Part shown: in pieces, positions 4,565-8,085 of the stretch
Layout of the letters: every line of letters begins with the position of its first letter
Numbering within the stretch: the stretch's first letter is position 1
NCBI GenBank assembly: GCA_902790595.1
Contig: CADASL010000011.1
Location: 35,861 to 99,860, forward strand
Reading direction: 5' to 3'
Source of the DNA: an uncultured Bacteroidales bacterium
GTDB lineage: Bacteria > Bacteroidota > Bacteroidia > Bacteroidales > SZUA-534
Length of the DNA: 64,000 nt
The notes under the pieces: generated by a model
What the model saw: the letters and a program-made list of their open reading frames with translations, nothing else
The model's database searches: none
What the model was told of the DNA's origin: nothing
Translations under genes and position numbers: made by a program

Positions 4565-5413
4565 CTAAAACCTCACTCTCATCGCCACTCCAGGCGCCAC
4601 CTTCGCCTTCTCATCTTGCAGAATTACAGGGTTGAGCGAAATGCCGTCTTTGTATTTCGGTTGCATAGTGTAGGCGCGGAAAAGATTGAAAACGTACAGT
4701 CCAGCCGCCGCGCCCCAAATCACATAACTGGCGTCGCGCAGGCGGTTGTAGGTTGTATGGGCGTCGTTGTAATCTGCGTACGAAACGCCTTCCGACTTCA
4801 TCACATCCAGTTTGTTTTGAGCCTCAACGTAGCAATACGCACCAGCACCAACCAACGCCACCTCACCAGCCAATGTCAGCAAACCTTCGCCAACGTGCCG
4901 CTTTCCAATCTGGCCTAAACCTGGAATAAACATCGATTTCAGCAATGCGTTGCCGTCTTTAAACTCCTGAGCCGTATAACAATCCCTGAACTCGGTGAAG
5001 TGCACATCGATGTTACCACTAACCGCCACCTGACATAATACATACACTAGAACATAGCCGTTTTTCTGCCGTTCGGTGTATTCGCACACTTTGTTTATCG
5101 GGATGTTGAATGTTGATGAAATGACATCGAAACTCTCGCCACGCTGCACTGCGCTGTTGATTTCCTGCGCATTAAACGGAACGCCAATCCGCTGGCAAGC
5201 CGTCATCAGGACTTTGGCAATGGCTTGGTTGCGCGCATCGCTTTCCGAATAGCAAAGCCCCGATTTCTCAACAACATACACGTATGTGTCATTCGCTCTT
5301 TTGGGCTTTTTAGTAATCCACTGTGGCTGAGTTTGCGCAAATGCTCCAACCGATAGCAACAACGTGCAAGCCATCAGCGCAAAATAGCGTTTTATGCGAT
5401 ATAAATCATTCAT
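4565..5413 (-). CDS. Exported hypothetical protein (LPP20-like N-terminal part, C-terminal SxFIPGLGQ membrane segment)
   Basis: The track ORF 4565..5497 probably starts at ATG 5413 (MNDLYRIKRYFALMACTLLLSVGAFAQ, signal peptide), overlapping the upstream stop by 8 bp. Motifs QPQWI...DARNQA and ALLKSMFIPGLGQ. Confidence 0.65.
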   Translation of the reverse strand: MNDLYRIKRYFALMACTLLLSVGAFAQTQPQWITKKPKRANDTYVYVVEKSGLCYSESDARNQAIAKVLMTACQRIGVPFNAQEINSAVQRGESFDVISSTFNIPINKVCEYTERQKNGYVLVYVLCQVAVSGNIDVHFTEFRDCYTAQEFKDGNALLKSMFIPGLGQIGKRHVGEGLLTLAGEVALVGAGAYCYVEAQNKLDVMKSEGVSYADYNDAHTTYNRLRDASYVIWGAAAGLYVFNLFRAYTMQPKYKDGISLNPVILQDEKAKVAPGVAMRVRF

Positions 5414-5966
5414 TTTCAAATTCTTTTTCAAAGATTCTGCGGAAGTCCTCACGATGCTGCTCCACGCCGAGACGGCTGTTTTTGGCCGCACTTTCAATAA
5501 TCTGTTCTTTCATTTCGCGTTTCGATACCTGAATGGCGATAAACACGTTGAAGTTGCCAGCATTGTCTTTCGTGGTTCGTTCGCAGGTCTTTTTCGAGTC
5601 GCCCACCAGTCGGTCAACCACCATCTGCATATCCGATTCCAGAATCTGCGCCACTTCTTCGGCGTTGCCCACCGCTATCGAGCGAGTGTAGAGTTCCGAC
5701 ACAGAGCGCATTTTGCCCCCGAACCGCTGTGCCAGCATTGCTTTGGCCGATTCGTATGCCGCTGTTCTGGCACCTTGCAGATTGACAGCCATTCCGGTGC
5801 CAAGCGCTCGGAAGTTTTCGTTGTCATCGTATGAGTATTCGGTGCACGGCACAGTTATCTCCGCCCCAAACGGATTTGATTGATTTGTAGTAACTTGTTT
5901 TTGTGTTCCACACGATACCATTAATGCTGCCATTGCAACCACCGAAATAAACTGTTTCACTCTCAT
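5406..5966 (-). CDS. Lipoprotein, LPP20-like
   Basis: 186 aa, lipobox LMVS-C, FRALGTG...ARTAAYESAKAMLAQ pattern. Confidence 0.75.
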   Translation of the reverse strand: MRVKQFISVVAMAALMVSCGTQKQVTTNQSNPFGAEITVPCTEYSYDDNENFRALGTGMAVNLQGARTAAYESAKAMLAQRFGGKMRSVSELYTRSIAVGNAEEVAQILESDMQMVVDRLVGDSKKTCERTTKDNAGNFNVFIAIQVSKREMKEQIIESAAKNSRLGVEQHREDFRRIFEKEFENE

Positions 5967-6067
5967 AATCTTATCTTTAATTTGTTAATTATTAAATATT
6001 TATCTCTATTTTTAACAGAGACGTAATGAATTTCGCCTCTACAATATTTCCTTCAATTTTTGACAAT

Positions 6068-6099
6068 AAAAAAAGCATAGACTGAAACTTTATCTATGC
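6068..6099 (-). terminator. Intrinsic terminator / attenuator at the 3' end of the leader
   Basis: Minus strand GCATAGA-TAAAGTTTCAG-TCTATGC followed by T7. Confidence 0.55.
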
Positions 6100-6214
6100 C
6101 CTGAGGTCCTAGGAAAACCCACCCAACCAGATAAGTACAACCTATGCATCCTGCATAAGTGCACTACTTGTTCTGGTTGGATTTTTGCCATAAAATTTCC
6201 TAGGTTCCAGGGCA
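6068..6214 (-). ncRNA. Candidate structured cis-regulatory leader RNA (nested stems plus overlapping terminator)
   Basis: Plus-strand pairs: TGCCCTG 6097-6103 / CAGGGCA 6208-6214; CCTAGGAAA 6108-6116 / TTTCCTAGG 6196-6204; CCAACCAGA 6123-6131 / TCTGGTTGG 6172-6180; inner TATGCA-tcc-TGCATA. It lies about 100 nt upstream of the lipoprotein cluster. Confidence 0.6.
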
Positions 6215-6401
6215 ATCCAAATAAGTGACTAATGTCAATATGTCTTTAAATCAAAATTTTATCTACTTTTTCAAAACTTCTTTTTAACGTATTAATAAAA
6301 TAAAATCAACTATCGACAAGACGCTTTGGCACAGCCGATAGTTGCGTAAATGTAAATAAAATTGTTTTTGAGTGTGCAGTGGGAAAAATACGATGTGTAG
6401 G

Positions 6402-7262
6402 TTACAATCTCGCCATAATATCGGCAATGAAACTGGAATCGAACACATCGAAAGCAAAACAACGCTTGCCCAAATCTTTGAGTGAAGCGCCAATATGGTA
6501 GAGCGTTTGGTTGTCGATAATCAGAAAGCGGTCGTGCATAGCGGTGGTGTGTTTCACTTCGAGCAACGGGTATTGCGCATTGAAACGTTGGACATCTTGC
6601 TCTGTAACAGTTGTTTGCGGATTGGTGTAAATGGTTACCTGCACGCCAGCGTTCTTTTTTGTGAAACGTTCAAGAACCGAAAGGTCGATATAATTATCAA
6701 TCAAAACAATAGACTGTCGCGCTTGCGCAATGAAACTTTCAAATTTTGCGTAAGCGTCGAAAATCTGCCCTTGAAAGAATATGCCTTGCGTGTCGTCAAT
6801 GGCATAGCGGTCCATACGGTCGAAAAGTTCGTCGATGCGTTTGTCGGATTCAATACGGTGCATTTCAAGCGAATCGAGCCGTTGGAATATCTGAGCGTTG
6901 GATAAAAGGAACTTACGCATTGATACAAAGGCTCTCATAATCTTGATGTTAACATCAACAGCGGTTTGGCTTTTCAATACAGATGAAAGCATAGCGACAC
7001 CTTGTTCAGTGAAAGCATTAGGCATAACTGTTGAATGTTTCAGCGTGTTGAACCGGTCGCAATTTGCGACCAGTTCGTCTTTCTCCGCTTTATTTAGGGC
7101 AAACATAAAATCCGCAGGAAACCTTTCAATGTTTCGTTTCACTTGTTCGTTTAAGCGTTTCGTCTCCACTCCATACAACTCGGCAATGTCGCGGTCAATC
7201 ATAACTTGTTGGTTACGAATCACCAATATCTTATTTTGTATGATTGCTATTTCGTTTGCCAT
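6402..7262 (-). CDS. ORF6N-domain DNA-binding protein with a C-terminal PLD-like domain
   Basis: ORF6N motif IRNQQVMIDRDIAELYGVETKRLNEQVKRNIERFPADFMF...AFTEQGVAMLSSVL and C-terminal IDNYID...HDRFLIID...YHIGASLKDLGK. Start moved to ATG 7262 because a -7 element lies at 7284-7291. Confidence 0.85.
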   Translation of the reverse strand: MANEIAIIQNKILVIRNQQVMIDRDIAELYGVETKRLNEQVKRNIERFPADFMFALNKAEKDELVANCDRFNTLKHSTVMPNAFTEQGVAMLSSVLKSQTAVDVNIKIMRAFVSMRKFLLSNAQIFQRLDSLEMHRIESDKRIDELFDRMDRYAIDDTQGIFFQGQIFDAYAKFESFIAQARQSIVLIDNYIDLSVLERFTKKNAGVQVTIYTNPQTTVTEQDVQRFNAQYPLLEVKHTTAMHDRFLIIDNQTLYHIGASLKDLGKRCFAFDVFDSSFIADIMARL

Positions 7263-7283
7263 TGGTTTAAACGCAGAGCAAGA

Positions 7284-7291
7284 CAAATGTA
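7284..7291 (-). promoter_or_regulatory. Bacteroidota -7 promoter element (TACATTTG) for the ORF6N gene
   Basis: Exact TAnnTTTG about 20 bp upstream of the ATG. Confidence 0.55.
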
Positions 7292-7402
7292 TAAAAAGTC
7301 GAATGGAAAAGGGGAATGCTTAATTCTCGAAAAAGTTTTGGTTTTCCCGCACAAATCGCCTCTAAAAAACTCTACGCCTTCGCCGTTGGTGCACAGAAAC
7401 TT

Positions 7403-7609
7403 CTATTTGGAAGTAGCCTGCAAAAGTTCGTAATTGTAATATTTGCTTTGCAGATAAAGACCAGTTTCGGGGTCGGAAAGTTGGTCGTAGAGCGAAGAAT
7501 TATAGAGAATGTCCAACGCTTCGGGCAGAGTTCGGTTCTGCTTCTCCATAATCAGCGTGGTGAGCCCGGCCAGCACATAATCAGTCAGATATTTCTGTTC
7601 ATCGCTCAT
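7403..7609 (-). CDS. Small DUF3791-like protein
   Basis: 68 aa, EALDILYNSSLYDQLSDPETGLYLQS motif; ATGA overlap with the DUF3990 stop (7606-7609). Confidence 0.7.
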   Translation of the reverse strand: MSDEQKYLTDYVLAGLTTLIMEKQNRTLPEALDILYNSSLYDQLSDPETGLYLQSKYYNYELLQATSK

Positions 7610-8085
7610 AATAATGTCAAATATTTAATGGCTCTTTCTGTACCAAAGTAATATTGGTTGTTAAGTTTGCGGTAGCGTAACTCGTCAACAAGTTGTTGCA
7701 GAGTGATTTTGCCCATTTCGTAGCGGTCGAGTTGCATTACCACGCCATCGTCGGCCACTGGTCCAATAACAATATCATAGTTGTGATGGAATCCTGTCTC
7801 CGACGCTCGGCGGTTTTCAAAAATAAATGCCGCCCACTCTTCCGACACCCCATCAAATATTTTTACATTCAACTCCTTGTCATTCAGGCTCGAATCATCG
7901 AAAATAAATTCGGTAACAATCGGCACGGCATCAATAAACAATCTGGCCTTTCGTTTGGCCATAGCCTCCGCCTGCTCCTTAATAGTTGTCAGATAAAAGC
8001 CTTTGCCGAAATCTTTGTTTATGTGTCCGACAGAAAGGTCGATGCGCTCTATTCGGACATTTGAGCCGTGATAGAGTTTAAGCAT
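7606..8085 (-). CDS. DUF3990 family protein (predicted ADP-ribosyltransferase-like fold)
   Basis: LYHGS...KDFGKGFYLTT...EEWAAFIFENR...YDIVIGPVADD...QYYFGTERAIKYL. Confidence 0.85.
   Translation of the reverse strand: MLKLYHGSNVRIERIDLSVGHINKDFGKGFYLTTIKEQAEAMAKRKARLFIDAVPIVTEFIFDDSSLNDKELNVKIFDGVSEEWAAFIFENRRASETGFHHNYDIVIGPVADDGVVMQLDRYEMGKITLQQLVDELRYRKLNNQYYFGTERAIKYLTLL

Follow-up and report, generated by a model that had tools for sequence, protein, structure and literature searches.

Nested inverted repeats between positions 6214 and 6068 (minus strand) of the 64,000-nt stretch of Bacteroidales DNA analysed here, hereafter called the window, lie directly upstream of a lipoprotein gene and raise the question of whether they form a regulatory RNA and, if so, how such an RNA would act on the gene that follows. 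An earlier note, made from the sequence of the window, had read them as three nested stems with an intrinsic terminator and a competing pairing, together forming a leader specific to a downstream lipoprotein/Abi/LRR cluster. We found that these hairpins are one copy of a large Bacteroidota RNA family that is absent from Rfam. We propose that the element is a transcription attenuator working in cis, one copy of an uncatalogued 5' leader RNA that is multicopy and phylum-wide, a reading to which we assign a probability of about 0.6.

A base-by-base check located the three stems, the terminator and the alternative pairing on the minus strand exactly where the earlier note had placed them. P1 (stem 1) pairs TGCCCTG (6214-6208) with CAGGGCA (6103-6097) over 7 bp, and P2 (stem 2) pairs CCTAGGAAA (6204-6196; P2 5' strand, CCUAGGAAA) with TTTCCTAGG (6116-6108) over 9 bp. 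Stem 3 joins CCAACCAGA (6180-6172) to TCTGGTTGG (6131-6123), also over 9 bp, and was lengthened by folding to P3, whose 5' strand AUCCAACCAGA (6172-6182) has 6131-6121 as its partner. The 3' strands of P3 (6131-6121), P2 (6116-6108) and P1 (6103-6097) follow one another within 6097-6131, and conserved unpaired GGG (6120-6118) and ACC (6107-6105) lie between them. Folding also revealed an apical stem that the earlier note had missed, made of AGUGCACUUAUGCA (6165-6152) and UGCAUAGG/UGUACU (6148-6134); the stretch 6147-6138, previously taken for an internal loop, is actually in the 3' strand of this stem. The two apical strands constitute segment 2 (X; 6151-6170, CAAGUAGUGCACUUAUGCAG) and segment 3 (X'; 6128-6148, UGCAUAGGUUGUACUUAUCUG). 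Segment 3 is able to pair with segment 2 or with segment 4 and contains GCATAGGTTG (6147-6138), which is complementary to CAGTCTATGC (6084-6075) through 10 pairs, two of them wobble.

Segment 4 (X2; 6075-6099, GCAUAGAUAAAGUUUCAGUCUAUGC) covers the whole "terminator" region. It self-folds as the terminator hairpin (GCAUAGA/UCUAUGC, that is, GCATAGA at 6099-6093 and TCTATGC at 6081-6075, then T7) or pairs over its full length with segment 3, and the U7 tract directly 3' of it (6068-6074) is kept in nearly all members of the family. The 5' arm of the terminator shares 6099-6097 with the closing strand of P1, or 6100-6097 when an extra G.U pair is included, and the competition between terminator and P1 over these four nucleotides is real. 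The element also reaches about 30-70 nt further 5' than had been noted, to about 6245-6286, and a fourth complementary segment lies there. This segment 1 (X'0; 6217-6243, ACAUAUUGACAUUAGUCACUUAUUUGG), about 26 nt directly 5' of the rod, is complementary to segment 2, resembles segment 3 (ACUUAUYUGG is common to both) and contains a small covarying hairpin, P0 (GAC-AUUA-GUC, 6236-6227); the three-way competition described earlier had overlooked it and was not the full layout. Folding of 6240-6055 gave a minimum free energy (MFE) of -65.2 kcal/mol versus -41.9 +/- 4.0 for 200 dinucleotide shuffles (z -5.9, 0/200 as good), which, together with the extensive covariation described below, bears out a structured minus-strand RNA. 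A 33-codon ORF, MAKIQPEQVVHLCRMHRLYLSGWVGFPRTSGHR, opens on the minus strand (6090-6191) at an AUG within the first internal loop and closes at a UAA in the loop of the terminator; since the family does not conserve this ORF, it is probably fortuitous.

At the level of BLAST, the element is present as a single copy in this genome, with orthologues in 8 of 15 genomes of the genus and nothing beyond the genus, and phage and plasmid collections yielded no BLAST-level match to the leader RNA. Among the orthologues, conservation extends about 60 nt upstream of the rod but not to the sequence 3' of the U-tract, and compensatory changes are already seen at 11 pairs in eight orthologous sequences. A covariance model built from these orthologues (R1) detected copies in all 16 genomes of the genus (2-10 each). 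A second model (R2), built from 47 copies, detected 24 copies in this genome, 6-29 in the other genomes of the genus and 5 in one sister genus; none was found with R2 in six other sampled genera of the same taxonomic family, some with genomes of 4-6 Mb. Independently of the covariance models, nhmmer reported 22 copies in this genome, dispersed and not in arrays, and five partial nhmmer hits, when read through, were full members with large apical insertions. The element is therefore not a leader specific to the lipoprotein/Abi/LRR cluster, as had been suggested, but belongs to a set of more than 20 paralogous leaders per genome that precede unrelated genes.

Outside the genus, true members were identified in records named Prevotella, Prevotellaceae, Paraprevotella, Segatella copri, Paludibacteraceae, Tannerellaceae, a Flavobacteriaceae isolate and Pedobacter panaciterrae; these came from a pattern of 14 specified bases whose matches were mostly chance hits, and were kept only after re-scoring with a covariance model. 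In an even sample of the phylum, copies were found in 29 of 301 genomes and 20 of 143 genera, which is an undercount because the search filters were strict. The earlier note had suggested checking Rfam and collecting homologs for a covariance model, and both were done: a scan of window positions 5000-7500 with Rfam 15 (E <= 10) gave nothing overlapping the element, its three weak matches lying elsewhere, and 14 diverse members gave no hit at E <= 1, while the homolog collection yielded many members. No description of the family was found in a literature search. Members are about 180-200 nt long and rod-shaped. In one subfamily in this genome, the apical stem is enlarged by an extra hairpin, an insertion of 40-70 nt that lies between segments 2 and 3 (C4:424549-424746, C2:395038-395256, C2:128014-128203, C10:79877-80042 and C6:77042-77270).

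Covariation was analyzed in 84 aligned members. For the rod and terminator, 89% of cells were paired, with 1069 double-change cells versus 316 +/- 18 after shuffling and a covariation score of 0.72 versus 0.22 for shuffled and at most 0.11 for slid controls, a massive signal relative to both. Double changes occurred in 7/7 pairs of P1 (96.6% of cells paired), and 9/9 pairs of P2 and 10/10 pairs of the P3 helix covaried; in P1-P3, pairing was always kept though the sequence varied from copy to copy. The conservation of G.U pairs indicates that the folded strand is the sense strand. Conserved unpaired positions are AA after P1, GGG opposite an AUUUU loop and CC before the P1 3' strand. When MAFFT and RNAalifold were applied to the 5'-extended sequences, the variable rod was misaligned and the conserved hairpins alone were recovered.

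The complementarity of successive segments was also found throughout the family. Family-wide pairing energies were -16.0 kcal/mol for 1:2 (-7.9 shuffled, z -3.3), -21.7 for 2:3 (-9.9 shuffled, z -4.5) and -21.8 for 3:4 (-8.8 shuffled, z -5.1; 99% below -2), and a separate test of X':X2 over the whole region preceding the U-tract gave -20.3 versus -9.2 kcal/mol for shuffled sequences (z -4.4). Family-wide pairing of 1:4 was not significant (-7.7 versus -7.0 kcal/mol shuffled, z -0.29; -5.65 versus -5.39 in an earlier test), and the like-with-like controls X'0:X' and X:X2 gave z values of about 0. Cognate partners beat non-cognate ones by 5-6 kcal/mol in 1:2, 2:3 and 3:4 alike and, for 1:2, 55 of 83 copies had their cognate partner ranked in the top 10%. 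The 1:2 and 3:4 helices are as well supported as the undisputed 2:3 helix. The core of the alternative helix in the terminator region, GCGUGGGC with GUCCACGC in most copies and GCAUAGG with UCUAUGC here, was 89% paired, with double changes in 8/8 pairs, whereas slid controls were at most 60% paired; it showed 24 double-change cells versus 6.3 +/- 2.2 after shuffling (0/500), and private compensating versions were present in at least six lineages, that of the window copy included. In many distant members segment 4 is unable to self-fold and segment 3 is its sole partner; in this genus a local segment 4 hairpin of -7 to -8 kcal/mol is found in most copies. The spacer between segments 1 and 2 is complementary to that between segments 3 and 4.

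The position of the element directly upstream of a same-strand gene, proposed for the window, also held in its relatives. In the window, a 101-nt spacer (5967-6067), non-conserved and without a Bacteroidota -7 promoter box, separates the U-tract from the start codon of a gene (5406-5966, minus strand) encoding a 186-aa lipoprotein whose signal peptide ends in ...MVSCG and in which no Pfam family was found. Each of the 22 copies examined in this genome is followed by an ORF on the same strand, 14-181 nt away and in most cases at 49-107 nt. Family-wide, such an ORF was present at 60 of 69 distinct loci, compared with 23 of 69 for the divergent-direction control, at a median distance from the U-tract of 60 nt (IQR 49-66). 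The TAnnTTTG -7 box was absent from all 19 spacers of this genome that were searched (1531 nt). Orthologues of the RNA (85-99% nucleotide identity) precede the same lipoprotein family (41-99% amino acid identity) in seven species; the spacer at these loci varies in sequence and in length (67-102 nt), and only the first gene, the lipoprotein, is conserved beside the RNA.

The products encoded downstream of the copies are diverse. Pfam assigned type ISP and type I (HsdM) methylases, DUF2971 proteins, lipoproteins, BspA-type LRR proteins and RHS-like repeat proteins with T9SS sorting domains; judged by their N-terminal sequences, others look like Dcm-type and MmeI-like methylases, an SNF2 helicase, ECF sigma factors and response regulators. 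A -7-like promoter box, TAAAATTTTG, may lie upstream of segment 1 at 6252-6261 (minus strand), where a motif resembling TAnn(n)TTT(G/A) is conserved in alignments of the upstream regions. Strict TAnnTTTG boxes occur in another subfamily of this genome, about 83 nt upstream of the rod, and members of the flavobacterial type have a promoter-like TTTG...ATTATTTG close to segment 1.

Transcriptomes showed that the leader is transcribed. In three rumen metatranscriptomes, contigs cover about 6019-6267 only and leave the ORF uncovered; they end 14-49 nt past the U-tract at a depth of 2.6-3.6, as contigs without end resolution, and at 6254 and 6267 on the other side, one with 32 further unlike bases. 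In other metatranscriptome contigs only the conserved helices match, and these contigs are therefore taken to be expressed relatives. An isolate transcriptome, whose organism name is coded in the run table, was compared with a Segatella copri record and contained a contig that starts about 100 nt 5' of the rod and extends 470 nt into the downstream SNF2 gene. Since leader and gene lie in one contig, read-through occurs. The depth of this contig was about 90 versus 5-10 beside it, contig depths having no local resolution, and paralogous cores in the same transcriptome reached a depth of up to 279. Terminated and read-through products are both plausible. The anatomy of the element, its covariation, copy number and gene linkage, and the transcription of the leader were thus demonstrated.

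An attenuator is the best reading of these data because the covarying structure is stranded, the element is linked to genes, the alternative pairing is conserved and Rfam has no match. The earlier note had proposed an attenuator or riboswitch-like switch; the first part was retained, whereas a riboswitch was not supported, because the genes downstream are not coherent with one metabolite: they encode R-M methylases and a helicase, T9SS cargo and lipoproteins, and sigma factors and response regulators. Which fold terminates, which state is the default and what the trigger is are inferred. Four segments, one 5' of the rod (1), two forming the apical strands (2 and 3) and one before the U-tract (4), would act in series and, because they are serially complementary and their spacers pair, two folds, R and T, are possible. 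Fold R would be one long rod made of P1-P3 and 2:3, and is predicted to be the thermodynamic ground state; it should allow read-through, because segment 3 is sequestered in it and the base of the terminator is also sequestered through P1. Fold T would consist of the hairpins 1:2 and 3:4, the second abutting the U-tract, and should terminate transcription.

In the window copy, the rod state was calculated at -64 kcal/mol versus -42 for a nested fold with 3:4 enforced; fold T, 22 kcal/mol less stable, would thus be only kinetic or factor-stabilised. The duplexes of this copy amounted to -13.0 (1:2), -17.2 (2:3, X:X') and -15.7 kcal/mol (3:4, X':X2), and the self-hairpin of segment 4 to -9.6 kcal/mol including G6100, with 6100-6097 overlapping P1. 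MFE folding of successive prefixes placed 1:2 in the nascent transcript through segment 2, after which it was displaced by 2:3 and the rod zipped up. During transcription, 1:2 could form first and segment 3 would have to displace it; the outcome would depend on what stabilises 1:2 or the rod, for which a protein, the kinetics of elongation or a small molecule recognised by the conserved internal loops could be responsible. The pairing of 6147-6138 with the 3' arm of the terminator, reported in the earlier note, proved to be conserved, to covary family-wide and to span the whole terminator region; among the alternative helices of the family it is the best conserved. However, it had been assigned to an antiterminator and, since segment 3 is the sole partner of the strand preceding the U-tract in many distant members, 3:4 is more likely a helix of the terminating state. 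In this genus, the self-complementary segment 4 would add a local terminator hairpin competing with P1.

Some properties of the element temper the attenuator reading. The local hairpin of this genus could make termination constitutive, and the 1:2 pairing would be impossible if transcription started 3' of segment 1. A 3:4 terminator helix with a loop of 35-45 nt is unusual, and the heterogeneous downstream genes offer no clue to the signal. The segments and loops shared between copies suggest that one global factor lies behind them. An extension of this idea, which is conceivable although we regard it as doubtful, is a phylum-wide gate for accessory genes in which one trans factor would read the loops or segments 1-4 and flip about 20 leaders per cell at once. 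In that case a peptide-free, rod-locked form of attenuation, not known to be described from any phylum, would control in concert the genes for R-M and defence, for T9SS surface proteins and for regulators. Such a factor might be an RNA-binding protein dedicated to these leaders, a NusG-like paralog, or a small molecule serving as a global signal.

The same observations were weighed against other functions. The element might be a stand-alone multicopy sRNA whose transcription invariably stops at the U-tract and which works in trans, through base pairing or as a protein sponge, its position before genes being incidental or reflecting a dual function. The conserved promoter region and U-tract terminator would suit such an RNA, as would the metatranscriptome contigs restricted to the RNA, the high expression of paralogues in the Segatella copri-matched isolate transcriptome (depth up to 279), and a conserved 5' motif, AACAUAUUAUUAAU, antisense to an AUG-containing AU-rich start region, which recalls the seeds of FopS/GibS (PMC11697453). 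A constant same-strand ORF at a tight 49-66 nt, behind spacers without a promoter box, would be unexpected for it, however, as would the contiguous leader-plus-gene contig, and three serial copy-specific complementarities would have no obvious role; we consider this reading unlikely. Less likely still is a 5' module that does not switch, whether a constitutive insulator or terminator, an mRNA stabiliser, or a site for loading a polymerase modifier (put/EAR-like, or the target of a NusG paralog), with the alternative pairings as by-products of internal duplication. The rod is indeed far more stable than any alternative fold, the conserved unpaired AA, GGG and CC could be a protein site, and the downstream genes are of accessory or horizontally acquired types, which in other phyla are controlled by processive antitermination. 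Against this, segments 1 and 4 track lineage-specific changes in segments 2 and 3, even where segment 4 cannot self-fold, which argues for selection on the alternative helices themselves.

An element acting at the level of DNA, either an invertible phase-variation switch or an attC-like recombination site built from inverted and direct repeats, appears very improbable. R-M and surface-protein genes, typical of phase-variable Bacteroidales loci, do lie downstream, and the X/X2 and X'0/X' repeats are present in the DNA; yet all 84 aligned members and the five partial nhmmer hits have the same full-length orientation, with no flipped form, and no strand-changing joints were seen in the transcriptome contigs examined. 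Moreover, read from the other strand, many of the conserved G.U pairs would become A.C mismatches, the RNA is transcribed with its U-tract, and the copies are dispersed and not in arrays. The most improbable reading is a 6S RNA or a 6S-like rod that binds RNA polymerase. The rod shape with internal loops is what such an RNA would show, and neither RF00013, the general 6S model, nor RF01693, that of the Bacteroidales 6S RNA, detects a 6S RNA elsewhere in this genome: a search of the whole 98.6%-complete genome with both models gave no match, the RF01693 control does find Bacteroides thetaiotaomicron, and RF01685 gave none in the all-Rfam scan of window 5000-7500 (E <= 10). Either the 6S RNA of this lineage has diverged or the assembly lacks it. 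The element itself matches neither RF00013 nor RF01693, and more than 20 copies per genome, each a gene leader, effectively refute a 6S identity. In addition, Segatella copri, which has a Bacteroidales-1 6S RNA (bioRxiv 10.1101/2024.04.05.588293), carries copies of the leader family as well. Two sRNA candidates were discarded on their published descriptions, namely SrcF of Segatella copri (272 nt), which does not fit, and FopS/GibS (65-70 nt, another architecture).

Returning to attenuation, the leader family shares with the trp/his/pheA attenuators four serially complementary segments with a U-tract after the last, a 2:3 helix that excludes a 3:4 terminator, and a 1:2 pairing that would form first on the nascent RNA. 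Unlike them, it has no conserved leader peptide or regulatory codons and occurs in more than 20 copies per genome, before unrelated non-biosynthetic genes; in addition, because the 1-2 and 3-4 spacers pair together, 2:3 is the tip of a rod of about 45 bp. Leader-peptide attenuation was rejected, as no ORF is conserved: an ATG ORF of at least 8 codons was present in just 43 of 83 copies, with scattered starts and stops. Another parallel is offered by the zipper-type attenuator cATT of the Bacillus subtilis plasmid pLS20 (Gonzalez-Alvarez et al. 2026, PMC13401043). There too the leader peptide is absent and a long stem is the antiterminating conformation (PMC13401043), as it would be here, and an imperfect long stem lies between an upstream weak stem-loop (here P0) and a downstream terminator, all of which are present in the leader family. 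The complementarity of the 1:4 flanks that defines cATT is, in contrast, not significant family-wide here (z -0.3), and zipper pairing was rejected at that level as not exceeding shuffled controls, although 1:4 pairing is present in the MFE of the window copy. In the leader family it is the apical stem that competes for the terminator strand, and the family differs further in being multicopy, chromosomal and from another phylum.

The family resembles riboswitches and the PyrR, TRAP, BglG/SacY RAT and T-box leaders in being a structured 5' leader whose terminator and antiterminator folds exclude one another, and its conserved unpaired nucleotides could serve as a ligand or protein site; it differs from them in lacking an Rfam match and in that the downstream genes have no common pathway. 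FopS/GibS of Bacteroides thetaiotaomicron are likewise multicopy paralogous Bacteroidota RNAs with their own promoters and terminators (PMC11697453, PMC7366714). However, FopS RNAs are described as about 65-70 nt long, acting in trans via a 5' seed and not fixed upstream of ORFs (PMC11697453), and this description sets them apart from a rod of about 180-200 nt that is always a gene leader. Bacteroidales-1 RNA (RF01693) is also a rod-like non-coding RNA of Bacteroidales, but the leader family does not match its model and is multicopy and gene-linked. Under the proposed mechanism, the family is best filed as a new and widespread variant of the terminator/antiterminator leader.

Post-initiation control of gene expression is poorly understood in Bacteroidota and, to our knowledge, Hfq, ProQ, CsrA and classical Shine-Dalgarno use are absent from the phylum. 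If the proposed mechanism is true, the family would amount to a major layer of regulation in dominant bacteria of the gut, the rumen and the environment, with tens of copies per genome placed before defence systems, surface or secreted proteins and regulators, and would extend peptide-free attenuation of the zipper type to a new phylum and a new geometry. It also provides a ready alignment for Rfam, a handle on the trans factor and an aid to annotation; many Bacteroidota "intergenic sRNAs" belonging to the family are probably terminated leaders.

Further motifs were observed around the leaders. The most conserved upstream motif, (U)AACAUAUUAUUAAUCA (about 6237-6243), is antisense to an AU-rich, AUG-containing translation start region, and if it is transcribed and exposed, terminated leaders could act in trans too. 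A second conserved motif, GGGGAGUCGCAAGCAC ... GUUGCGCACGACAC, lies in the 5' UTR past the U-tract, about 25-60 nt before the start codons of LRR/T9SS genes; in this genome it was found in the spacers at C4:37436, C3:109176, C9:110144, C5:172662 and C4:424549 and is absent from that of the window copy. This motif might serve as an alternative promoter or as an additional regulatory element. On the same strand upstream of the window copy lie rpoC (8821-13158), a DUF3467 gene, a DUF3990 gene flanked by small ORFs, and an ORF6N-domain gene (6402-7286), and these neighbours (7403-8713, 8821-13158) place the leader locus in a small accessory island directly after rpoBC. After the ORF6N-domain gene sits a terminator-like hairpin on the minus strand, CAACTATCG (6344-6336) with CGATAGTTG (6315-6307), followed by a T-rich run (window 6294-6344), which would insulate the leader from upstream transcription; the same 6294-6344 region underlies a weak, spurious rli60 match on the plus strand.
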